Assembly: GCA_020638675.1 (NCBI GenBank)
Contig: JACKID010000001.1
Coordinates: forward strand, 2,125,537-2,189,536
Direction of reading: 5' to 3'
DNA length: 64,000 nt
DNA from: Planctomycetota bacterium
GTDB lineage: Bacteria; Planctomycetota; UBA8742; UBA2392
Below are positions 7,913 to 60,701 of this stretch, piece by piece. The notes below the pieces were generated by a model. The model did no database searches. It saw only the letters and a list, made by a program, of their open reading frames with translations, and was not told where the DNA came from. The translations under genes and the position numbers were made by a program. Position 1 is the stretch's first letter, and each line of letters begins with the position of its first letter.

Positions 7913-8091
7913 GCTGCCTCCAGGGAATGTCTGAATAGCTGCTCGACTCGGGATCGATTTCCGCACCGATTCACTGCTGGAGGCATTGGAGACTTTTGAT
8001 GTGCAGAAATTCTAACTTCGGAAGTCTAAGTCCCCCAAGCCATTATCGTCATGAATTTGGCACCGAGCGGTCTGAAACGCCGCAAATGAAA

Positions 8092-8117
8092 ACCGGGAGC
8101 GCATGCGCGCCCCCGGT
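8092..8117 (-). terminator. Rho-independent terminator after S8 paralogue 2
   Basis: On the - strand ACCGGGGGCGCGCATGCGCTCCCGGT is followed by TTTCATTT. Confidence 0.7.
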
Positions 8118-8134
8118 GCGTGGCTGCGATGTTC

Positions 8135-11100
8135 TCACGCCCGCTCGCGGCGGCGTGCAACCAACACAATCGACATCAGGGCAATCAGCGTAGCAAGCAA
8201 CCAGGACGAATCGGCGCCCGTGCTGCAGCCACCCTTGTCCTTGCCGCCCCCGCCACCGGAGCTTGATCCCCCACTACCACCTCCCCCCACCGGCGCGCTG
8301 CCCGTGGCGTTGACGGTAATCGTCACGGTATCGCTGTTGCTGTTGCCGTTGCCGTCATCAACGACCAGCTGGAACACCAGCACGTCGTCGACACTGGGCG
8401 CGGTAAACGTCGGCTGCGATGTGTTTGCACCAGACATCGTTGCCGAGTTGCTGCCGCCGATCTGCGTCCAGGTGTAGGTGAGCGTGTCGTTCTCCGGATC
8501 GCTGCTTTGCGTGCCGTCCAGTTGCGTAACCGCAGCCCAGGCCGCGTATGCGTCGGGGCCGGCGGAAGCCGTTGGCGGGTTGTTCGCAGCAGAATCCAGC
8601 ACCGTCACAACGACAGTGTCGGTGTCACTGCCGCCGTTGCCGTCATCCACCGTGAGCTGGAAGGTGATCTGCAACGATGAGCTGACTTGCGGTGCCGTGA
8701 ACGTCGCATTTGCCGACGTGGCGTTGCCGATCGTGACCCAGCTTGAGCCTACTTCAACCCAGGCGTAGCTAAGGGGGTCGCCGTCCGGATCTGTACTTCC
8801 CGTACCGTTCAGGTTGCCTGTGTTTCCCTCGGTAACGCTGAAGTTCACGCCGGCGTTGGCCGTCGGCGGGTTGTTCGGCGCAGGAACATCGTTCACGGTG
8901 ATGTTGACGCTGTCGGTATCCTGGTGTCCGTGGCCGTCGTCGACCGTCAACTGGACGACCACTACCTGGGTGCTCGACACCTGCGGCGCCGCGAACGTTG
9001 GCGTGGCCGTGTTCGAGTTCTGGATCGTGATTGTCGGGCCGCTGATGCGGACCCACTGGTAGGTAAGCGTGTCGCCGTCCGGGTCGGTGCTGCCGCCGCC
9101 GTTGAGGTTGACAGTCACGCCTTCGTTAACGGTCTGATTGCTGCCGGCGTTGGCCGTCGGCGGCTGGTTGATCGGCGGGTTGACTGTGTCGTAGTCGATC
9201 TCAATCGCGAGCCATTCCAGTGTGCCCGTGTTACCGCTTGAGGTGTCTGTGACCTGCACGGTCCAGGTACCGTTCGCTGCGAGCCCGATGAATGCGGCCG
9301 TATCGTCGTCGTATTGGCGCGTGTCTGGATACACACCGATAATGTCGTCACGGGTACTCGTGTCGCTGCCCTCGATTTGTGCCGTCGTGCCGCTGTGCGA
9401 CAGATAGATGTCGATGTTGCCGCGCTGCGTGTGGCGGATGTCCACGTATACACGCACGTTCTTCACGGCATTCGTGTTGCTCACCGTAAATGTACGTGTG
9501 ATGCCTGTGGTGCTGTTGTCAGGGATGCTGACCGGCGTGCCGCCGTTGAGCGAGTCCTCAAACATCTCGCGGGCGGTGCTCATTACGTTCTCGCTGACGA
9601 TCACAAAACCGGTCGCGTCGTTGAGGACGGTGTTCTGCGGGTTGGCGGGAATGCTGGCGCCCTTCACGCGGACCTTCCAGGTGCCGGTCGTTGGGTTGTC
9701 TACCTCGGCGAGTTCAATGTTATCGCGCTGGTTGCTGCCGTTGCGTGTCCACTGGTAGGTCTGGTTTCCAGCACCGCCCGAGCTGAGCCCGGACCAAGGG
9801 TAATGAATAGTCGTGCCGTTCGGCTCGACCAGTTCCAGGTCGATGTTGTTGATCAGCTTGTTGCCGGCGCCGGTGCTGGCATAGATGTCCAGCCACGAGC
9901 AGACAACCTTCAGCGGCGTGGAACTGCTGGTCACGGAAAGGTTGTACTCAACCACGTCGCCCTGGCGAATCGTGCCGCGAATGATGTGGTTTCCACCACC
10001 TGCACTGTTGGCGAGGATCAGGTCGGCCGCACGCTGGCAGTCGACAACCCCGAAACCGTAGCGGTAGTCCGGCCCCTGGTTGTATTGGTCCATTGCGGTG
10101 GCGGCGAGAATGCCGCGCACTACATCTGGTGCGAACTGGCGGTCGTTCATCTCGCGATACCAGAGCTGCGACAGAAGGGTGATCGAGCCGCACACGCTCG
10201 GACTCGACATGCTGGTGCCGGACCAGCCCGACGGGCCAAGATAGGCCGTGTCGCTTGCTGGACCGGTACTGAGCAGGTTTACGCCGTTGGCCGCAAAGTG
10301 CGGGATCATGCGCCCGTCGTCCGTCGGCCCGCGCGAGCTGAAGCTTGCGATTCCCCCACCGTCGTCAGTGGCGGCGATGACGAGCGCGTTCTTGATGCAA
10401 CTGTCGTCGGTGCAGCTGTTGTCGCCGGCGCCGTCATTGCCGGCCGACTTGCACATGTTCAGCCAGATGTCGCGAATGTCGATGTCCGACGACTGGGCCG
10501 AACCGTCATAGCCGCCGTACCCCCCGCCGCCGCTACCATAGGAATGATTGTCGGCGGAGTGCCGATAGTTGTGGCGGGCGAGGCGGCGCTCGGCATCCAT
10601 CGAGTTCCAATCATAGCTGAGAACGCAAGCCTGCGGCGCGTACCCGCGCGCGCCCGCGTTGCCCGTGCCGTCTCCGGCGATCGTGCCGGTCACGTGGGTC
10701 GAGTGGTCCGCCAGACTCGTACCGTCCACCTTGAGAATGCGCTTGGTTCCGTTGTTGATCGGACTGGGCGAGGGTGCATTCTGGAAATCCACGTGTGTGT
10801 CTCGGGCACGGCCTGCATCCCAAACGGCTGACACAACACCGGTGCCGTCTAGATTGTAGCTGGTGCTCGGGCCGATCTGGCTGGGGAGCGCATTCGAGAG
10901 TGCGACGCTGTCCACGTTGTGCGCAGTCAGCGTCTGGCGTACTTCCACCCACTCGACCAGCGGGCTGTTCACGAAAGCAACGAGCGCCTGGCGGGTCAGG
11001 AAAGCATCAACGAATGGGGTCTCGAAGTCCAGGTGCCCCTGACTGTCGAGCGTGGCGTAGTCCACGGGCGCCTGGTTCTCGGCAAGCAGACCCTCGGCCG

Positions 11101-11686
11101 CCGCGGACGTTACGTCCCTGAAAAACAGAATGCGATAAACCTTGCCTTCCACCGCGGGGTCGTTGTAGTCCGCCCAGGCCTCGGCGCTGCAAGCGTCCAT
11201 TGGCTCACGTAGCAGCGTGCCCTCAACACTTGGGGCGTCGCGCAGAAGTGCGCCAATCCGTTGCAGTGCGGCGGCATCGAGCGCGCGAATGAAGTGGGCG
11301 TGCGGATAGGCGTAGCCGACAAATGATGCACCGGCCGCAGACAATTGGTTCGCGAAGCCCCGACCCAGCGGGCCGCTGAACTTGACGTAAAACGGTTTTG
11401 TCGGCTCGGACGTCGGCAGCGGGCAATCGGAATCTGCAATTGCGTATCTGGGCTTCAGGCTAATGAGTTTGGCCCGCTCGTCGGAAGAAAGCTGTTGTTC
11501 GAATCGGTACTGGGCGTCCAGGTCGTACGGCGCTCCCAGCTCCAGGCTTGAGGTAAATCGCTGACGTTCCCCACGTTCGTTTACCTCTTTGGCGTCCTGG
11601 CTGTGTACCGCGGTTGAAAGTGTCGCCCAGACACACCCCACCATGGTCAACAGGGCCAGCATCGCCAATGCGGGTTTGGGCCGCAT
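8135..11686 (-). CDS. S8 subtilisin-like serine protease with P-domain, three PKD/K319L-like repeats and a MYXO-CTERM-like tail (paralogue 2)
   Basis: VWDAG, DHSTHVTGTI, SAGND, SGTSMSSP; P-domain; three NxPPTAxAG repeats; KGGCSTGADSS-TM-RRRERA. Start ATG 11686 after GGGAGG. Confidence 0.92.
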   Translation of the reverse strand: MRPKPALAMLALLTMVGCVWATLSTAVHSQDAKEVNERGERQRFTSSLELGAPYDLDAQYRFEQQLSSDERAKLISLKPRYAIADSDCPLPTSEPTKPFYVKFSGPLGRGFANQLSAAGASFVGYAYPHAHFIRALDAAALQRIGALLRDAPSVEGTLLREPMDACSAEAWADYNDPAVEGKVYRILFFRDVTSAAAEGLLAENQAPVDYATLDSQGHLDFETPFVDAFLTRQALVAFVNSPLVEWVEVRQTLTAHNVDSVALSNALPSQIGPSTSYNLDGTGVVSAVWDAGRARDTHVDFQNAPSPSPINNGTKRILKVDGTSLADHSTHVTGTIAGDGTGNAGARGYAPQACVLSYDWNSMDAERRLARHNYRHSADNHSYGSGGGGYGGYDGSAQSSDIDIRDIWLNMCKSAGNDGAGDNSCTDDSCIKNALVIAATDDGGGIASFSSRGPTDDGRMIPHFAANGVNLLSTGPASDTAYLGPSGWSGTSMSSPSVCGSITLLSQLWYREMNDRQFAPDVVRGILAATAMDQYNQGPDYRYGFGVVDCQRAADLILANSAGGGNHIIRGTIRQGDVVEYNLSVTSSSTPLKVVCSWLDIYASTGAGNKLINNIDLELVEPNGTTIHYPWSGLSSGGAGNQTYQWTRNGSNQRDNIELAEVDNPTTGTWKVRVKGASIPANPQNTVLNDATGFVIVSENVMSTAREMFEDSLNGGTPVSIPDNSTTGITRTFTVSNTNAVKNVRVYVDIRHTQRGNIDIYLSHSGTTAQIEGSDTSTRDDIIGVYPDTRQYDDDTAAFIGLAANGTWTVQVTDTSSGNTGTLEWLAIEIDYDTVNPPINQPPTANAGSNQTVNEGVTVNLNGGGSTDPDGDTLTYQWVRISGPTITIQNSNTATPTFAAPQVSSTQVVVVQLTVDDGHGHQDTDSVNITVNDVPAPNNPPTANAGVNFSVTEGNTGNLNGTGSTDPDGDPLSYAWVEVGSSWVTIGNATSANATFTAPQVSSSLQITFQLTVDDGNGGSDTDTVVVTVLDSAANNPPTASAGPDAYAAWAAVTQLDGTQSSDPENDTLTYTWTQIGGSNSATMSGANTSQPTFTAPSVDDVLVFQLVVDDGNGNSNSDTVTITVNATGSAPVGGGGSGGSSSGGGGGKDKGGCSTGADSSWLLATLIALMSIVLVARRRERA

Positions 11687-11897
11687 TGATGCCTCCCTTC
11701 TCGTCCGAAATATCAAAGAACACACACCTAGGTGAGTCGCCCAGATCTCGCCTTGATTACACGAACGGGTGAGTATTTTTCAGGTTCAAACTGTTTCTAA
11801 GTATGTGCGAGCGTTGCGACTTGCGGCACGCCCGCCCGCAAAGCCCCAATTGGTCAACACCTGTACGCAATTGGGCCGTCGGGGTACCTTGGAAGGC

Positions 11898-17419: not shown

Positions 17420-18607
17420 CTACTCGCGGAGCGTAACCTCAATCGTGTGGGCTGATCCGTTGCGGGTGTACGTGACCTTGATGCGATCACCGGGCTGGTA
17501 GCTCGCAAGTGCCGTCTTCAACTCGTCGAGCCCGTCGATGTTGGTTCCCTCGACCCGGGTGATCAGGTCACCTGGCTTCAGGCCTGCTTCTTCGGCGGCC
17601 GTCCCGTAGATTACTTCCTTTACGAGTGCGCCCTGCTCCGCTTCCGGGCGAAAGCCGCTGTCGATCAAGACGCCCAGGAATGCTGTCGATATGGATCGCG
17701 GGACCGAGCTGATGGTGTCATCACGCGCCTTGTCATCGGCACCGATGATCGCCTCATATACCCGACGCGCCACGTTGATCGGGATCGCAAAGCCGATGCT
17801 GTCTGTGCCCTCGCCCTGATCGCGAAGTTTCCAGGTATTGATCCCGATCACGCGCCCTGTCAGGTCGATCAACGGACCGCCCGAGTTGCCGGGGTTGATG
17901 GCGGCACTGGTCTGCAGGTAGTTGCGCACGAGCGTGCTGGCATTCTCGCTGCGACGTCCGACGTAGCTGACGATTCCCTCAGTGGCCGTGTAATTCAATC
18001 CGTAAGGGCTGCCGATGGCGACAACGACGTCGCCTTGTTCAACCTTGTCGCTGTCGCCCAGTGTCGCTGGGACCAGCTTGTCCGCGACAATCTTGATTAC
18101 AGCCAGGTCGTACTCCTCGCGCTTCCCGACAAAACGCGCCTCATACATGTTGTCACCGAGTACCACGTTCAGCTTCCGCGCATCGCTCGGGATTACGTGG
18201 GCATTCGTGAGGATGTAGCCCTGGTCATCCAGGATGATCCCGCTGCCAACGTGGCTCTGGCCCGGCAGGCGGGCTGAGCCTGTGCCGGATGGAACGATCC
18301 GCTCCGGGGTTTCGGCGACGATGCCGACCGTGAATCGCTTTGCCCAGTTAATGGCGTTGACGTACTGCTTGGGACGCTCCTGTGTCAGGGCCGGGTCTTC
18401 GACAACTTTGTCGGCCGCGAGGCGATCCAGCACACCGGAGTTGGCGACCAGAAAGACCAGCACGCCGCCAAAGAACGCGCCGATCATCAGATACATCAAT
18501 GAGCGGCGCCCGAGCATTTTGGCCGTGTCCAGATGTCCGCGGTGGTAGCCCTCGTAGTAGGCAACTTCGGATGGTTCTTCTGCGTCAAGCTTTCGGATTG
18601 TCGGCAT
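17420..18607 (-). CDS. HtrA/DegP-family trypsin-like serine protease with one PDZ domain
   Basis: N-terminal TM helix; TNAHV (His), DLAVI (Asp), INPGNSGGP (Ser); C-terminal PDZ (FLGV, GLKPGDLI). Confidence 0.92.
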   Translation of the reverse strand: MPTIRKLDAEEPSEVAYYEGYHRGHLDTAKMLGRRSLMYLMIGAFFGGVLVFLVANSGVLDRLAADKVVEDPALTQERPKQYVNAINWAKRFTVGIVAETPERIVPSGTGSARLPGQSHVGSGIILDDQGYILTNAHVIPSDARKLNVVLGDNMYEARFVGKREEYDLAVIKIVADKLVPATLGDSDKVEQGDVVVAIGSPYGLNYTATEGIVSYVGRRSENASTLVRNYLQTSAAINPGNSGGPLIDLTGRVIGINTWKLRDQGEGTDSIGFAIPINVARRVYEAIIGADDKARDDTISSVPRSISTAFLGVLIDSGFRPEAEQGALVKEVIYGTAAEEAGLKPGDLITRVEGTNIDGLDELKTALASYQPGDRIKVTYTRNGSAHTIEVTLRE

Positions 18608-18716: not shown

Positions 18717-20279
18717 CTACTTCTTTGCCTTCAGCGTCTTCTCGGCGCCGTCACGGAGGATCTTGATTTCGTACTCCGCCCCCTTCTCCACGCCGGCGAG
18801 CGCGTCGCGCAACTCCGTGCGCGTGTCGACGTCCTTTCCGTTGACGGCGAGAATAATGTCGTAAACCTCAAGCCGGGCACGGGCCAGCGGCTTGTCCGAA
18901 TCAACGATTTCGTTGACTGACAACCCGTGGTCGAGCCCGAGCTGCTTCTTCGGCATCGGCATCAGGCGGGCAACCCGCACTCCTTCGACGATATCCATCT
19001 GCTCGCCCTTGGCCAACGGCACGTCCTTCTCCGGATACTCGGGGCGATCTTCCTTTACTTCCGGCACCGGTGGGAGCTTGCGATCGATCTTGTCGGTCGC
19101 CCCAACGATCTTGCGCTGCCACATGTCGATGGTGTCGCAGAACTGCTTGTGGTACTTGGCTGCGACCTCAAGGGTGTCGGGCCACTGGTCTTTGCCTTCC
19201 TCAAGGATCTTGTCCTTGAGCTCGGCAAACACATCGTCCACTCGTTCCGCAATCTCGTCGATCGCGTCTTCGTACTCGTCTCCACCGATACGGCGCAGGT
19301 CCTTGACGCGCGCATCGATATCGCGGTTCAGCTCGCCAAGTCGCTCCAGCGGTGAAGGAAGCGTTTCGTCGCCGCCGATCTTCTTGGCCCAACCATCAAG
19401 CTCGGCCGTGTAGTTCAGCATGAACTTGTCGGCGTCCTTCAGAATCTGCGCCCACGCCTTGGGGTCGGCATCGTCAAGCTTGTCCTCAAGGCCTTCGTAT
19501 GTAGCGAGAATGCGCTCTTCCACGTCGTCGAGCTGGTCCTGATACTTGTCACTGGCGATCTTGCGGAGGCGCTTCACGCGGGCGCGCAGGGCCTTCTTCA
19601 TGTCGGTGACGCGTTCCTTGGCATTCGGGACTTCGCTGCTCACGCCAACCTTGTCGGCCCACTTGTTGATCTGCGCCGAGTACTCCGTGTGAAACTTGCG
19701 CGCGGTGCTCAGGACGCCGTCCCACTCGGCAGGCATACCGTCTTCGATCTTGTCGTGAAGATCAGCAAACGTGTCGCGGATCTTGTCGGAGAGGTCGTCC
19801 ATCTCTCCTTCAAGTTTGTCATCGCTCGCCTCGCGCATGCGCTCGCAGTTGAACAGCAAGTCGCGCTCGAGTGCGCGCAGGCTTGCTCGGTAGCGGTCTT
19901 TCTTGATGTCCAGCGCCTCTTCAGCTTTGTCTTCAGGGTCGCGCTCGGCCGCGTTCTCGCGCTCGCGCTCCTGTAGCTTCTTCATGTCCTTTTCGAGCTT
20001 CTCACGCGCCTTCTTTTCGAGCGCGTTGATCTCCGCCTCGGTGAGGTCGCCGGCCGCGAAGGTCCCGCGCTTCACTTCATCGACTTCTTTCAGGAAACCG
20101 CTCAGCGACTCACCGTCGCCGTGGCTCTCGGGTCGGGCCATGGTGTCGCCGGGCTCGGCCTTCTTGGCTTCGCCGTGGCTTTCAACCGTGCCGTCCTTAC
20201 TTTTGATCGTGATGCCCTGTGCAGCCAGCGGCAGTGCGAGTCCGATTGCCCCAGCGACCATCAGCCCGAAGCGTCCCAT
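18717..20279 (-). CDS. Secreted helical-repeat protein with a C-terminal PDZ domain
   Basis: Signal peptide ending PLAA; three ~90-aa acidic helical repeats; PDZ-like tail (ARLEVYDIILAVNGKDV...IKILRDG). Confidence 0.8.
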   Translation of the reverse strand: MGRFGLMVAGAIGLALPLAAQGITIKSKDGTVESHGEAKKAEPGDTMARPESHGDGESLSGFLKEVDEVKRGTFAAGDLTEAEINALEKKAREKLEKDMKKLQERERENAAERDPEDKAEEALDIKKDRYRASLRALERDLLFNCERMREASDDKLEGEMDDLSDKIRDTFADLHDKIEDGMPAEWDGVLSTARKFHTEYSAQINKWADKVGVSSEVPNAKERVTDMKKALRARVKRLRKIASDKYQDQLDDVEERILATYEGLEDKLDDADPKAWAQILKDADKFMLNYTAELDGWAKKIGGDETLPSPLERLGELNRDIDARVKDLRRIGGDEYEDAIDEIAERVDDVFAELKDKILEEGKDQWPDTLEVAAKYHKQFCDTIDMWQRKIVGATDKIDRKLPPVPEVKEDRPEYPEKDVPLAKGEQMDIVEGVRVARLMPMPKKQLGLDHGLSVNEIVDSDKPLARARLEVYDIILAVNGKDVDTRTELRDALAGVEKGAEYEIKILRDGAEKTLKAKK

Positions 20280-20442: not shown

Positions 20443-21474
20443 GTGCGCTACGGTGCTTTACATCTAAAGAACAACCTGGTGGCGGCCCCCTTGGCCGGCA
20501 TCAGCAATCGCGCGTATCGGGTGCTTTGCAAGCGCTACGGTGCGGGACTGACCTACGTTGAAATGCTCAAGGTCGAGAGCTTTCTGCATCACAACCGCAA
20601 GATGATGAACCTGAAGTACTACCGGGAGGACGAGCGCCCGGTGGGTATCCAATTCGCCGGCAACAATCCGCAATGGCTGGCCGAGGCCTGCATCATGGCC
20701 GAGGCTGAGGGCTACGACACGATCGACCTGAACATGGGCTGCCCCGTGCCGAAGATCGGCAAGTGCGGCGCAGGATCGGCGTTGATGGCGTATCCGGAAA
20801 AGGCCGCCAAGTGTTTCGAGGCAATGGTGAATGCCGTGAAGATCCCGGTCACGGTCAAGATCCGTGCCGGCGTGAACGAGAACTGCCTGAACTTCATCCA
20901 GATCGGCAAGCTGGCCCAAGAGGCCGGGATGGTGGCAATCACGATTCATCCACGCACTCGCGCACAGAGCTTCAAGGGCGTCGCGGATCACGCGCGTACC
21001 GGAGAGCTCAATGCTGCGCTGGACATCCCGGTGATTGCGTCCGGCGATGTCAAAGAGCCGGAAGACGCCGTGCGCATTCTCAATGAGACCGGCTGCGATG
21101 GCGTGATGCTCGGACGCGGTGTCTGGGGACGCCCTTGGCTGTTCCGCGAGATCGATGAATTGCGCCGCTTCGGCCGAGTCGTCACCCCCACTCCCGACGC
21201 CATCGAGCGCTTGGGCGTCCTGCGAGAACACTTTGAGTTGCTGCTAGAGGGCTTTGATCCTCGCCACGCCTGTCAGGTCGTACGCCGTTACGCAACTTGG
21301 TACGTGCGCGACATCCCGGGAAGCGCCCAGTTTCGCGCACGAATCACGCGCGTTGAGACGCGCGAGGAATTCCACGAGATTCTCGACGAGATCACTGAAC
21401 ACTTCGAGCGCGTGGTCGGCATCCCCGAAGACGAGCTGATCGGCCGACGCCCCGTCGCGGCCTTGTCGGCGTGA
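20443..21474 (+). CDS. dusB: tRNA-dihydrouridine synthase, DusB-like
   Basis: AAPLAGIS, IDLNMGCPVPK, GAGSALM, VTVKIRAG, HPRT, SGDV, GRGVWGRPW. Start GTG 20443 inferred from RBS; the ORF track starts at 20380. Confidence 0.92.
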   Translation: MRYGALHLKNNLVAAPLAGISNRAYRVLCKRYGAGLTYVEMLKVESFLHHNRKMMNLKYYREDERPVGIQFAGNNPQWLAEACIMAEAEGYDTIDLNMGCPVPKIGKCGAGSALMAYPEKAAKCFEAMVNAVKIPVTVKIRAGVNENCLNFIQIGKLAQEAGMVAITIHPRTRAQSFKGVADHARTGELNAALDIPVIASGDVKEPEDAVRILNETGCDGVMLGRGVWGRPWLFREIDELRRFGRVVTPTPDAIERLGVLREHFELLLEGFDPRHACQVVRRYATWYVRDIPGSAQFRARITRVETREEFHEILDEITEHFERVVGIPEDELIGRRPVAALSA

Positions 21475-23072
21475 ACCCTTTTCATTTCCGCCCCCTGCGC
21501 TACAAAGGCGTGATGCTGCGTTGGCTTCCCGTAATCCTGCTCGCAGTCACCCTTTGCGGGTGCGCCGTCGGCGGCGACCGCCCGCCGGTTCGCACATATG
21601 CGTGGCCGTTCTTCAGCGACAGCGTGGACGCGCAGGGCAACGCAACAACTCGCGCGCTCGGACCATTCGTTGAGCAGGAAGAACGCGCAGACGGCTACTT
21701 CAGCTCGACCGTCCGTCCCTTCTACCGCTACATTCGCGACCCTTCGGCCTACGAGGAAGATCACCTGTTCTTCTACCCGATCAGCCGCTACCGCGAACGC
21801 GAGCGCCCGGGTTGGGAAGGTCGCAAAGAGACTCGCTTTCACCTGCTGCCATTCGTGTGGTGGAACGACGTCAGCTTTTCGCCCGGCCATCGTGAGCTGG
21901 ACTACTTCTTCTTCCCGCTGGTGTTCGGCGGTGAGAGTACGATTGAGGGCTCGCACTTCGCGGTCGCGCCGTTCGGCGGCAACCTGAAGGGCGTGTTCGG
22001 GAACGACGAGATTCGATTCGTAATGTTTCCCTTGTACGTCGAGCTGCATCGCCAGGGACGCGTGACGTACTACCTGCCGTTCCCCATTGTGAAGTGGGGC
22101 TATGGCCCGGGCTACCGCACATACGGCGTGATGCCGCTGTTTTCGCGCACCGAGGTTTGGAAGGAAGTCCCGGACGAGATCACCGGCGGAACCAAGAAAC
22201 TGCCCGTCGCCGACCGCTGGACCGTGCTGTGGCCGTTGTTCCGATATGACCGCGACGGACTGGATCGCAAATACCCGCGCGAAGCGCTGATGGTCTACCC
22301 GCTGTTCGGCTACAGCCACACGGCTGTCACCACGAACCTGAGTTTTGCGTTCGTGTTGAACTATCCCATGTTCAGCTACACGCGCGCGGACCTGACCGAC
22401 ACGACTATCATCGATGCCTTCTGGCCTGTGTTCCGGTACGCCAAAGGTGACAACTTCACCCAGTACCGAGTCTGGCCGCTATGGGATTATTCGCAGCGCA
22501 AGACGCCGGTCGGCACGAACACGGCCATCAATGTGCTTTGGCCGCTGTTCTGGTATTTCGAAGACGAGCTTCCCGAGTACACCGAAACCCGCTACCAGGT
22601 CTTTCCCCTGTTCTTCGCCAACTTCCGCCGCTATCTGCCGGAGCCGGACGGAACCATCCGGACCAGCCACCTCGTGCGCATCTGGCCGCTGCTGAAATAC
22701 CGCAAGGACACGGATGGCACGGTGAACTTTGAGATGCTGTCGCTGTTCCCGTTCAACGACGAGAAGATCGACAACAACTATGGCGCGTTCTTCAAGTTCT
22801 TCACCGTGACGGCCGGCCCGGACATCACCAAGGTGCAGGCGTTGTTCCGGATGTTCAGCTACGAGGAAGACCCCTACCACGTTGACCTCAGTGTCGCTCC
22901 GCTGTTCGACTGGCACGTGGTGAAACAGGCCAAGGACAGGCTGCCCGACGCCTACGGGCCCCAGCCCGGCGACATCGAGGACTTCAATTTGCTTTACGGG
23001 ATGCTCGGGTACCATCACGGCCCGGATGACCGGTACACGAAGCTGTTCTGGGGCCTGAAGATCCGCAAATGA
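21471..23072 (+). CDS. Uncharacterised lipoprotein built of ~20 Pro-aromatic (WPLF-type) beta-repeats
   Basis: Lipobox LLAVTLCGC (start may be 21510/21513); recurring hydrophobic-x-P-hydrophobic-hydrophobic-x-Y units; stop overlaps the mlaE start. Confidence 0.8.
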   Translation: MNPFHFRPLRYKGVMLRWLPVILLAVTLCGCAVGGDRPPVRTYAWPFFSDSVDAQGNATTRALGPFVEQEERADGYFSSTVRPFYRYIRDPSAYEEDHLFFYPISRYRERERPGWEGRKETRFHLLPFVWWNDVSFSPGHRELDYFFFPLVFGGESTIEGSHFAVAPFGGNLKGVFGNDEIRFVMFPLYVELHRQGRVTYYLPFPIVKWGYGPGYRTYGVMPLFSRTEVWKEVPDEITGGTKKLPVADRWTVLWPLFRYDRDGLDRKYPREALMVYPLFGYSHTAVTTNLSFAFVLNYPMFSYTRADLTDTTIIDAFWPVFRYAKGDNFTQYRVWPLWDYSQRKTPVGTNTAINVLWPLFWYFEDELPEYTETRYQVFPLFFANFRRYLPEPDGTIRTSHLVRIWPLLKYRKDTDGTVNFEMLSLFPFNDEKIDNNYGAFFKFFTVTAGPDITKVQALFRMFSYEEDPYHVDLSVAPLFDWHVVKQAKDRLPDAYGPQPGDIEDFNLLYGMLGYHHGPDDRYTKLFWGLKIRK

Positions 23073-23857
23073 ACTGGAAAGACAACGCCGTCACAGGAGC
23101 ATTCAAAGGTGCGGGCTATACGCTCGTGCTCCTGCTTGAGGCGCTGGGGCATACCACGCAGGCATGGAAACGTCGGCGTGCGATCCTTACCCAGATGCAC
23201 GTGATCGGGACTCAGTCACTGCCGATCGCCAGCTTCTTCATGCTGCTGATCGGCATGGTCTTCGCGCTGCAGGTGGGTATTGAGTTCGCCCGCTTCGGCC
23301 AGACCAGCCTGGTTGGCCTTGTCATAGTGGCGGCCATGGTCCGCGAGCTTGGCCCCTGGATGACCGGCTTCGTGCTGATCGCGCGCGTCGGCAGCTCCAT
23401 GGCAGCCGAGATCGGCACGATGAGAGTGGCCGAAGAAATCGACGCGCTTGAAGTCATGTCCATCAATCCCAGCAGCTTCGTCGTCATGCCGCGCGTGTTC
23501 GCGTACGCTGTAATGGGCCCGGTACTGACCATCTTCGGTACGCTGGTTGGAATCGTCGGCGGCGGCATCGTCGCGAACCTGCAGCTGGGCGTAACGGTTG
23601 CCGACTACCTGCGCTTCGCCGAGAACGGTGCCGAGGCTCTCGACATCTACTGGGGGCTTCTGAAGTCGCTGGTATTTAGTCTTGTTGCGGCCTCAGTGGC
23701 ATGCTCGGCGGGTATGCGCACTTCCGGCGGCGCGGTGGGTGTCGGGCGCGCGAGCCGCAATACCGTGGTGATCTCGCTGACGCTGGTCGTGTTTTTCAAC
23801 TATCTGCTGACCAGCTTCTATAGGATGGTGAAGCTGTTCGTCACGGGAGCCCTATGA
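23069..23857 (+). CDS. mlaE: MlaE/YrbE-family ABC permease
   Basis: VRELGPWMTGFVLIARVGSSMAAEIGTMRVAEEIDALEVMSINP signature. Confidence 0.93.
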   Translation: MNWKDNAVTGAFKGAGYTLVLLLEALGHTTQAWKRRRAILTQMHVIGTQSLPIASFFMLLIGMVFALQVGIEFARFGQTSLVGLVIVAAMVRELGPWMTGFVLIARVGSSMAAEIGTMRVAEEIDALEVMSINPSSFVVMPRVFAYAVMGPVLTIFGTLVGIVGGGIVANLQLGVTVADYLRFAENGAEALDIYWGLLKSLVFSLVAASVACSAGMRTSGGAVGVGRASRNTVVISLTLVVFFNYLLTSFYRMVKLFVTGAL

Positions 23858-24918
23858 CCGACCGTTCGTCGGCCGATCAGGTAGCCGTTCACTTCGAGCA
23901 CGTCTCCAAGAACCTTGGCGGGCGGCAGATTCTCGATGACCTCTCGTTCGACGTGCGAGAAGGCGAGACATTCGTGATCATCGGGTACTCGGGCACCGGA
24001 AAGTCCGTCACGCTGCGGCACATGGTCGGGCTGATGGCGCCCGATCAGGGCAGCATCCGCGTAGACGGCGACGAAATCACAACCATGTCGCGCAAGGAGC
24101 TCGAGATCATGCGCCGCAAGTTCGGCGTGCTGTTCCAGAGCGGCGCGCTGATCGCGTGGCTTACCCTTTTCGAGAATGTCGAGCTACCACTGCTTGAGCA
24201 CACGCGCATGAGCAGGAAGAAGCGTGCCGAGATCGTGCAGAAGAAGCTGGAGATCGTGAACCTGTGGCAGGATCGCGATAAGTACCCGGCCGAGATCTCG
24301 GGCGGCATGAAGAAGCGCGCCGGGCTCGCCCGCGCGCTGGCGCTCGACCCGGGGCTGGTACTTTACGACGAGCCGACGTCAGGTCTCGACCCGGTGATCG
24401 CCAACGAAATCGGCAAGTTGATCAACGACCTGCGCGACAACCACGGTATGACGCAGATTGTCGTGACCCACGATATGGAGAGCGCGTACGACATCGCCGA
24501 CCGCATTGCCATGTTCTATCACGGCAAGATGATTCAAATCGGCACGCCCGAAGAAATCCAGGCGAGCACCATCCCTGAAGTACAGCACTTCATCACCGGC
24601 GGCAAGGAAGGCCAGGTCAGTCGCCGCAGCAACACGGCCATCATCCGCGGCGTAGCACCGGGCATGCTCAGCCAGCGCAGCGTCCAGGCCGCAGAGGCCG
24701 AGACGGCCGTCGCCACAGCCGAGCCCGAGCAGGACGGCTACGTCTTGCTCAGCGAGGAAGAAGCCGCGGCGGCCGCCAACGACTCCCCCACCGAACGCGA
24801 CCTGCCGCAGGAAGAAACTGAAGGACCGATTGAATCGGAATTGCCCTCGCTGGACCCGGAAGAGTCGGGAACGGCGCGGGATGAAGCCCCGAGCCTTGAA
24901 CCGGAGACTGAGCCATGA
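23854..24918 (+). CDS. mlaF: MlaF/Mkl-family ABC ATPase with an acidic C-terminal extension
   Basis: Walker A GYSGTGKS, signature ISGGMKKR, Walker B VLYDEP, VTHD. Confidence 0.93.
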   Translation: MTDRSSADQVAVHFEHVSKNLGGRQILDDLSFDVREGETFVIIGYSGTGKSVTLRHMVGLMAPDQGSIRVDGDEITTMSRKELEIMRRKFGVLFQSGALIAWLTLFENVELPLLEHTRMSRKKRAEIVQKKLEIVNLWQDRDKYPAEISGGMKKRAGLARALALDPGLVLYDEPTSGLDPVIANEIGKLINDLRDNHGMTQIVVTHDMESAYDIADRIAMFYHGKMIQIGTPEEIQASTIPEVQHFITGGKEGQVSRRSNTAIIRGVAPGMLSQRSVQAAEAETAVATAEPEQDGYVLLSEEEAAAAANDSPTERDLPQEETEGPIESELPSLDPEESGTARDEAPSLEPETEP

Positions 24919-26006
24919 AAGCACGTGACTTCATCGTCGGAGGACTGATCTTCCTCTCGTTCGCAGTAGCGCTCTACTTCGCCGTCTACGTCGGCGGAAC
25001 GGGCAGCAGCGTGTTCAGCGGCGGCCAGAACGAGTACCGCATCACGTTCCCCAACGTCGCCGGTCTCCAGCAGAACGCGCCGGTGTGGATCTCGGGCGTG
25101 CCCAAGGGCAAGGTCAAGGCGATGTACATCGACCCGTCCACCGGCAACGTCGAGGTCGCCATCGGGCTCGACAGCGACATGGTTCTCAAGACCGACTGCC
25201 ACGCGGAAATCATCCCGAGCAGCGCGTTCGGCGGCAAAGCGATCGCGCTCGACATTGGGCAGTCACCCGATCCGTTGCCGGACGGAGAGAAGATCCGCGG
25301 TGAACTTGTGGAGGACCTCTTCACGGCCGCCAGCCGCGGTATCAGCAAGATCAATGAGGGCATTGATGTCGCGGTCGACACGATCAAGGACGTCAATGCC
25401 GTGGTCAAAGACGTGCGTGCAGGCCGTGGCGCCGTGGGCACGATCCTGTACGACGAAAAGGTTGCAGGCGACGTCGCGGCGACCGTCGAAAATGTGCGCA
25501 TCATGAGCGAGGACGCCAAGGGCATTACCACCAACGTCCGCGACATCACCGAGAAAATCAACAGCGGCGAAGGCGCTGCCTCGCTGCTGCTGGAGGACGC
25601 CGACACGGCAATGCGCATCAAGAACATCGTCCGTAACGTCGAGGACGCGACAGACAACACGGTCGGCGCCACACGCGGTATCAAGTCAATCGTGCAGAAG
25701 ATCGACGACGGCAAGGGCTTCCTGGGCGTCCTGCTGAACGACGAAGAGACAGGCGAAAACATCAAGTCGGCCGTTGCGAAGACCCCGCCGCTGATGGACA
25801 GCATGAAGAAAGTCACCGACGAGATGGGCACGACGCTCGAGGGGGTCAACAACGGCGAAGGCTTCGTCGGCAAGATGTTCCAGGATGACACGCTGTACAA
25901 CGACACGCTGAACGCCATCAATACACTGCGCAGCGGCTTTGAAGACATCCGGGAGCAGGCCCCGATCACGACCTTCGCAAGCCTGCTGTTCCAGGTGTTC
26001 CAGTAG
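24915..26006 (+). CDS. mlaD: MlaD/MCE-family protein with a long helical region
   Basis: N-terminal TM; FPNVAGLQQNAPVWISGVPKGKV MCE motif; repeated GxGxxGxxLxD helical segments. Confidence 0.9.
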   Translation: MKARDFIVGGLIFLSFAVALYFAVYVGGTGSSVFSGGQNEYRITFPNVAGLQQNAPVWISGVPKGKVKAMYIDPSTGNVEVAIGLDSDMVLKTDCHAEIIPSSAFGGKAIALDIGQSPDPLPDGEKIRGELVEDLFTAASRGISKINEGIDVAVDTIKDVNAVVKDVRAGRGAVGTILYDEKVAGDVAATVENVRIMSEDAKGITTNVRDITEKINSGEGAASLLLEDADTAMRIKNIVRNVEDATDNTVGATRGIKSIVQKIDDGKGFLGVLLNDEETGENIKSAVAKTPPLMDSMKKVTDEMGTTLEGVNNGEGFVGKMFQDDTLYNDTLNAINTLRSGFEDIREQAPITTFASLLFQVFQ

Positions 26007-26031
26007 AGGAAGAACAAGCGACAATACGCCC

Positions 26032-26928
26032 ATGTGGATCGCGCAGACCTTTCACGATTTCACTCGGCACGCGATGTCACCCGTCGCCGCGGTCGCCCTT
26101 CACTCGGCGATTGGGGCTTTCTTCATCGCCGCGATAACGGCACTCGCGGCCTTGCTACAGCCGACCCGCATACGCATGAAGTGGGCAAACTGGGCCGGCG
26201 CCTTTGCCACCGGCTCGCTCATTGGCTACTTCGCCATTCGGTTCGCCAACACGGGCACGGAGCCGCTGCAGAACATGTTTGATGTGGTGGGCTTGAGCGC
26301 ATTGTTTCTCGCGCTGGTCTACTTCGTTGCGATTCGGATGAAGAAACTGGAATCGGTCGGTGCGTTCGCCTACCCGGCCATTGCCGTGATCTTCTTGGTC
26401 AACCTGCTGTTGGCGCGAACCGCCACGCAGGGCGGTGATGCGCCGATCACGAGCCCGCTGCTGGTCGCGCACATTGTGCTGATCATTCTGGCGTACGGCG
26501 TGTTCTTCATGGCAACGGTTGCCGCGGTCATGTTCCTTCTCCAGGAACGGATGCTCAAGAAGCGCAAGGACCCTTCGTTCATGCGGACGTTTCCATCGCT
26601 GGAATCCTTGCGCAGCCTTGTAAACGCCTGTGTCGTGATCGGACTGCCCCTCGTAACCGTCGGCTTTGCGCTTGGCTTTGCCAGCTTCCGGGCTGAGGAC
26701 TGGGCCCACGTCTACAGCAATCCCAAGGTGCTCAGCAGCCTGGTGCTGTGGCTGGTGTTACTTGCGGTGGTGATCGGCCGGCGATTCGGCTGGCTTCACG
26801 GGCGCCGTCACTTCTACCTGGTTCTCGTCGGTTTTGCCCTTGTTTTGGCAACCTACGTCGGACTGGGCCTGGTTGAAGCACGCGATAAGGGCACGAACCC
26901 ACCGAACATCGAAGGAAAATCGGGCTGA
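26032..26928 (+). CDS. Cytochrome c assembly protein, CcsA/HemX-like
   Basis: Multiple TM helices; AHIVLIILAYG, FLLQERMLKKRK, FPSLESL, NPKVLSSLVLWL. Start ATG 26032. Confidence 0.85.
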   Translation: MWIAQTFHDFTRHAMSPVAAVALHSAIGAFFIAAITALAALLQPTRIRMKWANWAGAFATGSLIGYFAIRFANTGTEPLQNMFDVVGLSALFLALVYFVAIRMKKLESVGAFAYPAIAVIFLVNLLLARTATQGGDAPITSPLLVAHIVLIILAYGVFFMATVAAVMFLLQERMLKKRKDPSFMRTFPSLESLRSLVNACVVIGLPLVTVGFALGFASFRAEDWAHVYSNPKVLSSLVLWLVLLAVVIGRRFGWLHGRRHFYLVLVGFALVLATYVGLGLVEARDKGTNPPNIEGKSG

Positions 26929-28259
26929 TGCATCGCTTTGTCGTTCTCGGGATCAACCACAAGTTCGCGCCCCTTGAGGTTCGCGAACGGTTGGCGTATC
27001 CCGACCGACGCATCCCCGGCGCCCTCAAGACCATCCGCGAAAAAGCCGGGTGCGCTGAGGCCGTTCTGATCTCGACCTGCAATCGCGTTGAGGTCTATGC
27101 CTTCACCGACGGCGAAGACGCCCGTGCCCGGCTACTGCTGGGTCTCGCCGCCGATCACGGAATGAAGCCCGAGTACCTTGAACAGTACTGCTACTTCCAC
27201 CGCGGGCGCGACGCCGTGGAGCACCTGATTCGCGTTGCAGGCGGGCTCGACAGCCTCGTGCTGGGCGAAACCCAGATTCTTAGCCAGACCAAGAAGGCCT
27301 ACCTGCTCGCGCAATCCGAGAATTCGACCGGCAAGGCGCTCAACGGGCTGTTTCATCGTGCGTTCCAGGCCGCCAAGCGCCTGCACACGGAGACAGGTAT
27401 CGGCGAAGGCCAACTGTCCGTTTCGGCCATTGCGGTGCGTTTCGTAAATCGCGTGTTTGAAGAACTTGGCGACAAGACGGCCCTGCTGATCGGCATCGGC
27501 GAGGTCGGAGAATTGACACTCACTTACCTGAAGGAAGCCGGCATCGGGCGAGTGGTGGTGGTTTCACGTAATCTAGAGCGCGCGCGCGAAACGGCCGCAC
27601 GCTTTGACGGCGACGCAGTGCCGTTTGAATTGCTTCAAGACTACTTGCCGGCCGCGCACGTCATCATTTCGCAGACGGCGTCCGAGACCCGAATTCTCGA
27701 GCGAAAGCACTTCCAGAAGTCGCAAAAGCAGCGCGGGTACGCTTCCGTATTCGCCCTCGACCTGGCCGTCCCACGCGACATTGCGGAGGACGCGGGCGAA
27801 GTTGAAGGAGTCTATCTCTACAACGTGGACGACCTGGAACACGTCGTCGCGGAACACACGATGGAACGCAGCCGCGAACTGGAGCAGTGCCGCGAAATCG
27901 TGGCCGATGAGGCCAACCACTTCCTCAAGGGCTTCAAGACTTTCGAGGCCGGCCCTTTGATCACACAGCTTCGCAGCCGGGCGGAGCAAGCTCGTGACGC
28001 AGAGTTGGAGCGCCTGTTCAATCGTCTGCCCGACCTGACTCCTGAAATGAAGGAAGAGCTTGCCGCGCATTCGACGCGTTTGCTCAACAAGCTGCTTCAC
28101 CCGCAGATCCAGGGCATCAAAGAGCAAGCCGCGCATGGCAATACGGACTCACTGCGTGTGATGGCGGAATCCCTGGGGGTTGAATCCGTGGCGTCAACGC
28201 AACCAGGACAGACCGCACCCGACGAATCCGAAACAGTACCCTCCGAGGAGCAGCCATGA
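26928..28259 (+). CDS. hemA: Glutamyl-tRNA reductase
   Basis: GINHKFAPLEVRE, STCNRVE, GLDSLVLGETQI, DLAVPRDI, LYNVDDL. Confidence 0.96.
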   Translation: MHRFVVLGINHKFAPLEVRERLAYPDRRIPGALKTIREKAGCAEAVLISTCNRVEVYAFTDGEDARARLLLGLAADHGMKPEYLEQYCYFHRGRDAVEHLIRVAGGLDSLVLGETQILSQTKKAYLLAQSENSTGKALNGLFHRAFQAAKRLHTETGIGEGQLSVSAIAVRFVNRVFEELGDKTALLIGIGEVGELTLTYLKEAGIGRVVVVSRNLERARETAARFDGDAVPFELLQDYLPAAHVIISQTASETRILERKHFQKSQKQRGYASVFALDLAVPRDIAEDAGEVEGVYLYNVDDLEHVVAEHTMERSRELEQCREIVADEANHFLKGFKTFEAGPLITQLRSRAEQARDAELERLFNRLPDLTPEMKEELAAHSTRLLNKLLHPQIQGIKEQAAHGNTDSLRVMAESLGVESVASTQPGQTAPDESETVPSEEQP

Positions 28260-53987: not shown

Positions 53988-55070
53988 CTATCTCTCCTGC
54001 AGCTCGTTTAGTGCCTTGATGGCGCGCTCCGCCATTGCACGACGGCGCGGCGTTTGTGCCGCGATTGCCTCGCTGCTCCTCGCCGCGGCTGAACGAATCA
54101 CGGGCATTGCGACCAGGTCTTCTCGCTTCACGCTTGTATCGAACGTTCCGTCCTTGCCGGAGTCTTCCGATCCCGCCGGCTTGCCGTTCTCCAGCGCCGA
54201 AGCCTTGCCCCTCAGCGCTGCAGCGCCCGCATCCAGCTTGTCTGCCAACTCCGCGCGCGCCGCGGCATCGAGCGGTGCGGCGTCGGGCAGGTCGCCGGGA
54301 GCCAATCCGGGAGCAGACTCGCCCCCGTCCTTCAGGGCGTTCCTGGCATCCGTCAGTGACCTGTTGCGCTGTTCGTCTGTTGCAGCGGTATCTCGCAGCA
54401 CGGCCGCAGTGCGCTTGAGCTGCGTAGCCGTCTCCTTCATGCCGAGCGCCTTGCGGTACGCGTCCCGGTCGCTTGCGGCGCGGCTTCCGCCGACGTCGAC
54501 ACTTGACCAGGAATCCGACTTGCCTTGCGCCTCCGTGCCGGCGACTGCACCGCCATCGACCGGGCGCTCGGCGCTGACGACAGCCGCGAACAGTACACCA
54601 GATGCCAGCGCCAGCAGCGGTACTGCAACCAGCCTGCGAGTCGGGATCAACACGGGCGCGGGAGACCGTACAGCCTGCTTGAGTTCCTCCGCTGCGCGCG
54701 CGAGCAGGGGGCGATAGAAGACGTTGCCCTCGACAACGCGCAACGCCGCGGCCAGGGCGCCCGTATCGTGCGGCAAGCGTGCCTCAAGTGCCAGTGCGAC
54801 CTCCTGCAAGCCCGGCAAACGGTAGCGGCGCAGCTCATAGCCGACGCCGAGCAAGAAGCCCGCGGCCCCGCCCAGCGCGATGGAGCCGATGCCGCCCGTC
54901 GTCGCGAACAGCAACCGCGGCAGCAGGTCAAGGAACACCACCGAGAGCCCGAGCGCTATGGCTCCCCCTGCAATGCCCGTAAATGCGGCTCTCGCCAGCT
55001 GACGCGCGATCAGCCGCAGCGCGACGGCGCGCAGCTCGGCTTCCAGTTCGGCTCGGCTGGTCAGGGGCAA
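53988..55070 (-). CDS. Hypothetical membrane protein (N-terminus resembles DUF4175-type proteins)
   Basis: Two N-terminal TM helices, VALALEARLP...ALAAAL, a third TM, then a helical region. Confidence 0.6.
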   Translation of the reverse strand: MPLTSRAELEAELRAVALRLIARQLARAAFTGIAGGAIALGLSVVFLDLLPRLLFATTGGIGSIALGGAAGFLLGVGYELRRYRLPGLQEVALALEARLPHDTGALAAALRVVEGNVFYRPLLARAAEELKQAVRSPAPVLIPTRRLVAVPLLALASGVLFAAVVSAERPVDGGAVAGTEAQGKSDSWSSVDVGGSRAASDRDAYRKALGMKETATQLKRTAAVLRDTAATDEQRNRSLTDARNALKDGGESAPGLAPGDLPDAAPLDAAARAELADKLDAGAAALRGKASALENGKPAGSEDSGKDGTFDTSVKREDLVAMPVIRSAAARSSEAIAAQTPRRRAMAERAIKALNELQER

Positions 55071-55073
55071 GGG

Positions 55074-56605: not shown

Positions 56606-56614
56606 TGGTTTCCC

Positions 56615-57106: not shown

Positions 57107-57153
57107 GGCGAATCCTTGAAGATTCGCCCCGGGATGAGATAGCGACTTAAACG

Positions 57154-57185
57154 AACCAGGCGAGGGAAAGTTCCCTCGCCTGGTT
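57154..57185 (-). terminator. Strong hairpin between the two exbD pairs
   Basis: Perfect 14-bp stem AACCAGGCGAGGGA-AAGT-TCCCTCGCCTGGTT. Confidence 0.65.
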
Positions 57186-57201
57186 TCAATTCTTGGACGA
57201 A

Positions 57202-57819: not shown

Positions 57820-57839
57820 GGGATTCTCCGGACCGCGAA

Positions 57840-60677: not shown

Positions 60678-60701
60678 GGTCTGTCTCCTTGCCGCCAGGG
60701 C

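Follow-up and report, generated by a model that had tools for sequence, protein, structure and literature searches.

How diderm bacteria move phospholipids from one membrane to the other is understood in detail for Proteobacteria only. The locus described here, from a Planctomycetota bacterium, raises the question of what meets the far end of such a transport system in other lineages. In most phyla, the PVC group included, the far-end contact of the MlaD needle is a gap in the field; PVC-group MlaD has no C-terminal barrel, unidentified proteins have been speculated to be needed, and phylogenomics places MlaEFD alone, with a long MlaD, as the ancestral system (PMC10665443). Within a window of 64,000 nucleotides (the whole stretch of DNA that was analyzed), a gene for a repeat protein, hereafter REP, which is not mentioned in that study, lies directly ahead of genes of the mlaE, mlaF and mlaD types. 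We consider REP the best current candidate for a far-end MCE partner where MlaA, MlaC and PqiC are lacking, and a concrete one: it belongs to a large, unannotated family, is confidently folded in prediction, is almost always linked to the transporter, and is matched by a partner-specific tail on MlaD.

The operon and its MCE protein

The genes of the operon, and the parts of their products that matter for the argument, are as follows.

21513..23072, + strand: REP, 519 aa, exported beta-hairpin repeat protein (ORF call; alternative GTG start at 21471)
21513..21563, + strand: predicted REP lipoprotein signal peptide MLRWLPVILLAVTLCG, followed by lipobox Cys17 (L-C-G-C; sequence reading)
23069..23857, + strand: MlaE-type permease (PF02405, 3e-67; TIGR00056, 1e-60)
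23854..24918, + strand: MlaF-like ABC ATPase (PF00005, 1.6e-31; NF008809 MlaF, 3.9e-59, under cut-off)
24915..26006, + strand: MlaD-type MCE protein, 363 aa (PF02470, 4.6e-15; TIGR04430; TIGR00996)
25317..25949, + strand: MlaD extension (residues 135-345); four repeats of ~48 aa, each with a helix-like stretch ahead of GxGxxGxLLxD; presumed needle
25950..26003, + strand: MlaD C-terminal peptide REQAPITTFASLLFQVFQ, 18 residues, hydrophobic; candidate REP docking tail

All three junctions (REP/mlaE, mlaE/mlaF, and mlaF/mlaD) are ATGA start/stop overlaps, bearing out the translational coupling of the repeat protein to mlaE-mlaF-mlaD that had been proposed in an earlier, sequence-only reading of this DNA. 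The same reading began REP at GTG 21471, which appears less likely than ATG 21513: the latter yields MLRWLPVILLAVTLCGC and a protein of 519 aa, which equals the closest REP homologue in length, and its use as the start uncouples REP from the upstream dus gene. The permease scored 205.6 bits against TIGR00056, just under the cut-off of 212.2, and belongs to the MlaE family. The product of the adjacent ABC ATPase gene reached 200 bits against the NF008809 equivalog, for which the cut-off is 441, and is therefore MlaF-like rather than a strict MlaF equivalog; its translation ends in an acidic, Ser/Thr/Glu/Pro-rich tail of ~95 aa. Among the 46 proteins scanned in the 64-kb window, we found no match to PF04333, PF05494, STAS, or PF03886, and the canonical Mla components MlaA, MlaB, and MlaC are absent from the window. 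The earlier statement that mlaA, mlaB, and mlaC are missing thus stands for the window, and its reach ends there.

The MlaD-type protein starts with an N-terminal transmembrane helix, continues with a single MCE domain and a long extension made of repeats, and closes with a conserved C-terminal peptide. The MCE domain (PF02470, 4.6e-15) occupies residues 39-113, which places the protein among membrane-anchored MCE proteins; over residues 5-135 it can be aligned with solved chains of MlaD and Mce (7ch8, for instance, at 1.6e-7), and the TIGR00996 (Mtu_fam_mce) alignment spans residues 16-311. The extension had been described as long and helical: the length holds, with four repeats of ~48 aa at residues 135-345, and the helical character is suggested by the sequence. 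Five MlaD orthologues (alignment A5) carry 3-5 such repeats, and MlaD orthologues give weak or faint matches to PF28544 Helical_needle. In an alignment of divergent REP-linked MlaD proteins, the tail lies at the extreme C-terminus in 6/6. Using a regular expression that was written after viewing the REP-positive set, we found the tail motif RE..P[IV]..F..hh.G.F in 29/29 complete MlaD proteins from REP-positive metagenome loci, as opposed to 1/10 from REP-negative loci, an association that is inflated by shared ancestry.

Family and gene neighborhood of REP

A repeat roughly every 20 aa had been noticed in the earlier reading, and counting confirms it: mature REP contains 13 copies of the motif [hydrophobic][hydrophobic]P[LFIVM][hydrophobic], whereas 5000 shuffles gave 0.83 ± 0.88 occurrences (maximum 6), and the conserved prolines have a median spacing of 21 aa. 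In the family alignment, the tip prolines vary little or not at all between phyla. The first hairpin tip lies just 14 residues from the predicted lipidated cysteine. The description of REP as a lipoprotein fits the window protein, which carries an LCGC lipobox, and the alignment consensus is G-C at that column; in the family at large the description applies in part, as a lipobox is present in ~90/226 members and a plain signal peptide in ~102/226.

Searches with REP returned no match to Pfam or NCBIfam at E ≤ 0.1, and the family profile matched no PDB sequence. One search yielded 154 homologues and another 3408 representative clusters (50% identity), from Planctomycetota, Lentisphaerae, NC10, Desulfuromonadales, and others, in keeping with the suggestion that the repeat protein represents a new, unannotated family (~3,400 clusters). 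As a new domain family, it merits an entry in Pfam. Lengths fall between 457 and 555 aa (5th-95th percentile), a narrow range implying a fixed repeat number. In one case, REP is fused to EF-hand domains.

The idea that REP serves the MCE system was vulnerable to its homologues lying apart from MCE genes, which was not the case at the loci examined. REP was followed by MlaE-MlaF-MlaD at 30/30 REP loci with downstream DNA, which represent at least 8 divergent lineages with REP identities of 22-30%. Approached from the permease, REP lies directly upstream of MlaE in 42/60 metagenomic MlaE relatives with at least 1.5 kb of upstream DNA. Gene order therefore supports a specific and wide linkage of REP to MCE/Mla genes.

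Predicted fold of REP

Prediction of the structure of the repeat protein alone, which the sequence-only reading had suggested as a check, gave a confident AlphaFold (AF2) model (pLDDT 93.3, pTM 0.82) with ~46 strands of 5-8 residues, in which REP is modeled as ~23 beta-hairpins arranged in one up-and-down meander. The model of a 239-residue fragment had a pLDDT of 96.6. The closest structure to this fragment was the CPAP G-box (4bxr; probability 1.00, TM 0.38/0.47), and MORN1 (6t4r) was also matched (probability 0.93, TM 0.28/0.30). With TM below 0.5 and an rmsd of 9-12 Å to these structures, the curvature of REP differs from theirs. Judged from the models, the nearest solved folds would thus be single-layer hairpin ribbons (CPAP G-box, MORN) rather than barrels or propellers, at a TM of only 0.28-0.47. 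MORN arrays (PF02493) and the CPAP TCP10/G-box (PF07202) share with the REP model hairpin repeats of ~20-23 aa that build one continuous antiparallel sheet, but they have no sequence or Pfam relationship to REP, which is distinguished by a conserved proline at every second turn, a greasy edge, and its bacterial, exported, and MCE-linked nature.

Coevolution supports the meander pairing of the strands: strand pairing scored 0.307 across the Pro tips and 0.339 across the polar turns, in comparison to 0.160 ± 0.028 at random centers. A beta-propeller was rejected, since pairing-type coevolution is seen at almost every junction between consecutive strands and TMq to propeller proteins was 0.09-0.26, although their 3Di E-values were good. 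Every hairpin tip carries a cluster of conserved hydrophobic positions in the pattern hhPhh, and these tips give REP one greasy edge.

Candidate roles of REP

We propose, with slightly less than an even chance of being right, that REP is a dedicated exported subunit at the distal end of the MlaD needle and a non-homologous replacement for a PqiC- or MlaA-type partner. MlaE and MlaF would form the inner-membrane ABC engine, and MlaD would form the usual hexameric MCE ring, with a helical needle extending across the periplasm to REP at its distal, outer-membrane end. The REP of the window, presumably anchored by its N-terminal lipid, would be a single-layer ribbon of ~23 beta-hairpins whose conserved W/F/L-Pro-L/F tips align along one edge to make a continuous greasy rim, and the inner leaflet of the outer membrane would take up both rim and lipid anchor. 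REP would serve as the docking site for the conserved hydrophobic C-terminal peptides of MlaD and would mark the lipid entry or exit point of the needle, a role like that of PqiC/PA3214 for PqiB/PA3213, and partly that of MlaA for Mla, filled by an unrelated fold. The location of REP at the outer membrane, its overall shape, its contact with MlaD, and the stoichiometry, substrate, and direction of transport are what we infer here. That REP might cap the MlaD tunnel, as the earlier reading had it, gains indirect favor from the REP-specific tail of MlaD. A more specific version, which we hold tentatively and rate as somewhat improbable, is that REP serves many non-proteobacterial diderms as the distal partner of the ancestral, needle-type MlaEFD transporter, in the form of a single-chain, fixed-length hairpin collar or ribbon with ~23 Trp/Phe-Pro tips in one outer-membrane leaflet, capturing six MlaD C-terminal peptides. 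If true, a distal REP would show that the docking of a tail into a lipoprotein, as described for PqiC and PA3214, has a second solution by a non-homologous protein; the collar or ribbon would in addition couple a periplasmic lipid tunnel to a membrane in a way not described before, and would represent a new monotopic architecture among membrane proteins.

The sequence-only reading had REP as an amphipathic beta-barrel or groove capping an MlaD tunnel; that REP is an integral barrel or pore of the outer membrane, with the MlaD needle plugged into it, we consider very improbable. REP is all-beta and exported, 20% of its residues are F, W, or Y, its conserved last strand (RLLYFLxFG) resembles a beta-signal, a subfamily fused to an FHA domain ends in ...WFLEF, and LptD and FimD are among its weak Foldseek matches. 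The strands, however, span just 5-8 residues and are broken by invariant prolines, and conserved hydrophobic residues gather at the tips instead of alternating along the 9-11 residues of membrane-length strands. Moreover, TMq was 0.16 to VDAC (0.10-0.16 for VDAC, LptD, and FimD together), as against 0.38 to the single-layer ribbon of the CPAP G-box. The C-terminal residue is F, W, or Y in only 23/248 members, and in most members the last strand is followed by 5-25 aa of polar tail; the window protein ends in ...LFWGLKIRK. That REP is instead a co-transcribed envelope protein without a structural part in the transporter (for substrate capture or presentation, a regulator, or a cell-wall-associated factor with matched expression) seems to us distinctly unlikely. 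Such a role would suit the 18/60 related MlaE loci that lack an adjacent REP, and the FHA and, once, EF-hand fusions hint at signaling inputs. Yet gene order and translational coupling are kept across phyla at ~25% identity, and it is difficult to see why the MlaD C-terminal peptide should track REP if the two had no physical or functional partnership.

It is also unlikely, in our judgment, that REP is a periplasm-spanning or inner-membrane-proximal scaffold, that is, a ribbon of ~215 Å contour lying beside or around the MlaD needle and serving as its sheath or, like the bridge-like lipid transfer proteins, as a greasy rail. The dimensions would allow it (46 strands at ~4.7 Å each give a length similar to the periplasmic width), the hydrophobic edge runs without a break, and many members have no lipid anchor. 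Furthermore, proteins of four clusters begin with an FHA domain, which is followed by a hydrophobic segment and then the REP domain, with only a short linker between the segment and the first hairpin, and operons with such a fusion keep the MlaD tail (example L008). However, these fusions carry a perfect lipobox (LSGC, LGGC, or LAGC) straight after the hydrophobic segment, so that the REP part may be released as an ordinary lipoprotein. A pTM of 0.82 together with a fixed repeat number suggests a defined compact or closed shape instead of a free rod; the hydrophobic surface is an edge, not an LptA/AsmA-like groove, and an extended bent-strand ladder was not seen in the coevolution analysis. 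Against REP as a distal partner stand the FHA-hydrophobic segment fusions, the roughly half of the family without a lipobox, the 18/60 related MlaE loci without an adjacent REP, and a close relative of one REP-positive locus in which REP is no longer adjacent; an FHA domain plus hydrophobic segment would put REP at the inner membrane, unless the lipobox that follows is processed.

The suspicion that this might be an uncharacterized MCE architecture has held up, as it differs from the described ones. The closest parallel to the proposed distal partner comes from PA3211-PA3214 of Pseudomonas aeruginosa and PqiABC of E. coli, where the ring of outer-membrane lipoproteins has a hydrophobic groove that receives the C-terminal peptides of the cognate PA3213 or PqiB (PMC13631591). 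PA3211-PA3214 has an MlaF/MlaE-type ABC engine like that of the REP operon, and both systems encode a lipoprotein in the MCE operon, as is the case with REP and its LCGC lipobox. In PA3213 and PqiB, a short hydrophobic C-terminal peptide sets the lipoprotein pairing, and in REP operons the MlaD tail co-occurs with REP and is a candidate for docking. The PqiC-like lipoproteins belong to PF03886, which REP does not match, its predicted all-beta hairpin ribbon being an unrelated fold; their ring is an octamer of ~200-aa subunits, whereas REP is one 500-aa chain of ~23 repeats. Their gene follows the MCE gene while that of REP is upstream of the permease, and, unlike in these lipoproteins, lipidation is not universal in the REP family.

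The canonical Mla system (MlaA-OmpC/F, MlaC, MlaFEDB) has MlaE, MlaF-like, and MlaD proteins homologous to those of the REP operon, and an outer-membrane lipoprotein partner whose function REP presumably shares, although MlaA is alpha-helical and unrelated to REP. MlaD is ~180 aa in E. coli but 363 aa with a long extension here, and the soluble shuttle of the canonical system is presumably replaced by a continuous needle. Mycobacterial Mce1 (YrbE/MceG/Mce1A-F), whose family model TIGR00996 is the one that aligns over most of the window MlaD, resembles the REP system in having needle-forming C-terminal helices, short C-terminal tip segments, and extra non-MCE accessory proteins. It is built from six paralogues, however, in place of a single MCE gene and a presumed homohexamer, and has Mas/Omam-type accessories, absent from the REP system, in a different cell envelope. 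The MlaD of Veillonella parvula supplies a C-terminal outer-membrane beta-barrel of its own, whereas that of the window closes with a hydrophobic peptide of 18 residues and is accompanied by a separate operon protein, REP.

REP gene order and linkage to MCE genes

The exported Pro-aromatic repeat protein of the window (REP) is encoded head to tail with an MlaE permease, an MlaF-like ABC ATPase and an MlaD-type MCE protein, with an ATGA overlap at every junction. A dihydrouridine synthase gene lies upstream of REP; a CcsA-like protein and then hemA are encoded downstream of MlaD.

Open reading frames of the REP operon and its downstream neighbours
21471/21513-23072, +: REP
23069-23857, +: MlaE permease (PF02405, 3e-67)
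23854-24918, +: MlaF-like ABC ATPase (PF00005, 1.6e-31; closest named model MlaF NF008809, below cut-off)
24915-26006, +: MlaD-type MCE protein (PF02470, 4.6e-15)
25939-26928, same strand as MlaD: CcsA-like cytochrome c assembly protein, directly after MlaD
26928-28259, same strand as MlaD: hemA, after the CcsA-like ORF

The ATG at 21513 is a likelier REP start than 21471. Read from this ATG, the 519-aa product begins with a classic lipoprotein signal (MLRWLPVILLAVTLCG/C), and P0001, a REP homologue with 88% identity, has the same length. The CcsA-like ORF is listed with a TTG start that overlaps the end of MlaD, but an internal Met ~26 nt past the MlaD stop is more plausible as its start. The MlaF-like ATPase ends in an acidic, Ser/Thr/Glu/Pro-rich tail of ~95 aa (24634-24918; residues ~260-354), which could serve as a phosphorylation or regulatory tail; the ATPases of other REP-linked operons (239-290 aa) are without it.

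Seven look-ups of distant REP members all returned the order REP-MlaE-ABC-MlaD. A locus search with a narrow REP alignment retrieved only Desulfuromonadales MAGs (24 loci) and no cultured organism. Among these distant and Desulfuromonadales members, MlaE, MlaF and MlaD followed REP in order in every locus that extended past REP (30/30). We also scanned metagenomes with the MlaE of the window and took the 80 most similar relatives, 60 of which had 1.5 kb or more of DNA upstream. REP was directly upstream on the same strand in 42 of the 60; in the other 18 the neighbours were unrelated housekeeping genes, with no PqiC-like gene among them as an alternative accessory. One of these REP-negative loci shares 80% DNA identity with a REP-positive locus from mlaE onward, indicating that REP adjacency can be lost.

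Two further observations came from these loci. At one REP-negative locus (L061) a phosphatidylserine decarboxylase gene (7815-8462) directly follows the MCE gene, which links that transporter to phospholipid metabolism. In one REP-positive clade (L036, L039, L042 and L043) the open frame containing MlaD abuts MlaE and runs for 638-687 aa between stops, roughly double its usual size, which suggests that MlaF is fused to MlaD or that a stop codon is missing. In L039 and L042, REP and MlaE likewise lie in one continuous frame without a stop.

Repeat, family and fold of REP

The sequence-only reading had described a Pro-aromatic repeat in REP, and this observation was correct, since the mature protein contains 13 copies of the hydrophobic-hydrophobic-Pro-hydrophobic-hydrophobic motif against 0.83 ± 0.88 in shuffled sequences (maximum 6; n = 5000), and when 95 sequences from several phyla are aligned the repeat prolines form the invariant or near-invariant columns. 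The median gap between conserved prolines is 21 residues. A word-indexed search yielded 154 homologues, with identities of 70-88% in Planctomycetes MAGs and 22-30% in NC10/Methylomirabilis, Tectomicrobia, Lentisphaerae and Deltaproteobacteria/Desulfuromonadales; an exhaustive profile search over 1.84 billion cluster representatives gave 3408 matches at E ≤ 1e-3 and 1420 at E ≤ 1e-30. Members vary little in length (5th-95th percentile: 457-555 aa), which points to a fixed repeat number. REP had no Pfam or NCBIfam match, its family profile found nothing among PDB sequences, and the precomputed Pfam annotations of homologues left the repeat region uncovered, although accessions as recent as PF28544 are among them. 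Full-text literature searches found no description of the family. We conclude that REP belongs to a large, uncharacterised family without close structural precedent.

Some members have a different architecture. In a subfamily of 844-924 aa (P0057, P0059, P0064 and P0105; locus L008, 2954-5506), a ~400-aa N-terminal domain with FHA is followed by a hydrophobic segment, closed by a perfect lipobox (LSGC, LGGC or LAGC), and then by the REP repeats; three of the four proteins terminate in LEF or LEW, and a divergently oriented gene adjoining the FHA-REP gene encodes a second FHA protein. P0015 (605 aa), a close homologue, is annotated as EF-hand domains fused to REP, and P0253 (1767 aa), with nine stretches matching the REP profile, may be a multi-REP giant.

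AlphaFold2, run on the 95-sequence alignment, returned a model (pLDDT 93.3, pTM 0.82) of ~46 strands of 5-8 residues each and a single helix (417-427). Each conserved proline sits within a 3-4-residue connection joining two strands, and these connections alternate with polar Gly/Asp/Asn-rich turns. In a mean-field DCA of 249 members of the family (effective number 240), antiparallel pairing was seen at both kinds of junction, scoring 0.307 for the Pro connections and 0.339 for the polar turns, compared with 0.160 ± 0.028 for randomly placed centres and 0.102 for mid-strand centres. Because pairing spans both kinds of junction and the coupling ladder does not continue past half-strand (d10-15 = 0.139; random: 0.119 ± 0.018), the data support a plain up-and-down meander and argue against both a bent-strand beta-taco (LptA/AsmA-like, folded at the prolines), rejected because the antiparallel ladder ends too early, and four-stranded propeller blades; a propeller was rejected from junction pairing together with TM-scores. 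With 249 sequences, long-range couplings bearing on an open ribbon versus a closed ring were at noise level, and no periodic repeat-offset peak was found. Blocks pairing the N-terminal hairpin with residues 417-461 reached z ~3.2, not significant after multiple testing, and helix 417-427, an apparent coupling hub, was just marginally above controls.

Foldseek found no global match in the PDB for the full-length model; the hits were generic beta-meanders (TMq 0.09-0.18) dominated by multi-propeller proteins and uninformative for the global fold. When residues 24-262 were folded separately (pLDDT 96.6, pTM 0.79), the best analogues were single-layer hairpin ribbons.

Single-layer ribbon analogues of REP residues 24-262
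CPAP TCP10/G-box, 4bxr: probability 1.00, TM 0.38/0.47
T. brucei MORN1, 6t4r: probability 0.93, TM 0.28/0.30
OspA variants: among the best single-layer ribbon matches

This fragment resembles barrels (VDAC, TMq 0.16) and propellers (≤ 0.26) less well. Family-wide, the conserved hydrophobic positions gather as hhPhh at each tip and the remaining strand is mostly polar, implying that a single edge of the ribbon is greasy, as opposed to a whole face or a belt spanning the membrane. REP is unlikely to be a true transmembrane barrel, and the earlier proposal of a barrel or groove capping an MlaD tunnel should give way to a greasy-edged hairpin ribbon that probably docks the MlaD tails.

The MlaD tail and the placement of REP

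MlaEFD is reported to be the ancestral core; most MlaD homologues (85%) are of the long type, those of PVC and FCB are without the C-terminal barrel found in Veillonella, and additional unidentified proteins may be required (Grasekamp et al., 2023, PMC10665443). In the window MlaD, an N-terminal transmembrane helix precedes a single MCE domain, and residues 5-135 can be aligned with MlaD and Mce chains of solved structure; next come four ~48-aa repeats, each a helix-like stretch ending GxGxxGxLLxD. Orthologues carry three to five such repeats, with weak or faint Helical_needle matches. The protein ends in a conserved peptide, ...REQAPITTFASLLFQVFQ, kept in all six divergent REP-linked MlaD sequences aligned. 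In the metagenome set, this tail, with the pattern RE..P[IV]..F..hh.G.F, is present in 29/29 complete MlaD of REP-positive loci versus 1/10 of REP-negative loci. The motif was set post hoc on the same data and the statistic is inflated by shared ancestry, yet the contrast is plain to the eye in the sequences. The single exception is the close relative that lost REP adjacency.

Synteny, translational coupling and tail co-occurrence make it very probable that REP is a dedicated subunit of the MCE transporter; a REP merely co-expressed with the transporter, without interacting, is hard to reconcile with the correlation between tail and REP. The finding is real and not an ordinary one: here the envelope partner of an MCE transporter is encoded in the same operon and comes from an uncharacterised family. 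In known systems, PA3213 and PqiB, both MCE needle proteins, insert into a ring built of eight copies of their outer-membrane lipoprotein, PA3214/PqiC, with their C-terminal peptides binding a hydrophobic groove on its membrane-facing side (Giacometti et al., 2026, PMC13631591). The window operon follows the same plan: its engine is of the ABC type, its needle-type MCE protein ends in a hydrophobic tail that is conserved, and a lipoprotein is encoded alongside them; unlike the octameric ring, the REP lipoprotein is an unrelated single-chain hairpin ribbon.

We tentatively predict, with the balance close to even, that REP acts as the docking partner at the distal end, on the outer-membrane side: the inner leaflet would hold both the lipid anchor and the greasy rim of REP, and REP would receive the MlaD tails. 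A REP tethered to the inner membrane, or running along the MlaD needle, is kept alive because about half of the family has a plain signal peptide and no lipobox, and because the FHA-REP subfamily places an FHA domain and a hydrophobic segment ahead of REP, although the lipobox after that segment means that processing is possible.

Other genes in the window

On the minus strand, one ExbB/MotA-family gene followed by four consecutive ExbD/TolR paralogues (55982-59271) forms an unusual energiser cluster, flanked (53988-55895 and 59310-63932) by four proteins of 1076, 455, 273 and 360 aa with no Pfam match. A 520-aa secreted protein (18717-20279, -), which combines a C-terminal PDZ domain with a long, charged stretch of apolipoprotein-like or coiled character, adjoins an HtrA-like protease (17420-18607). 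Two tandem giant subtilases (S8; 4115-7966 and 8135-11725, -; 1283 and 1196 aa) carry a P-domain and multiple PKD/Big_9 domains.
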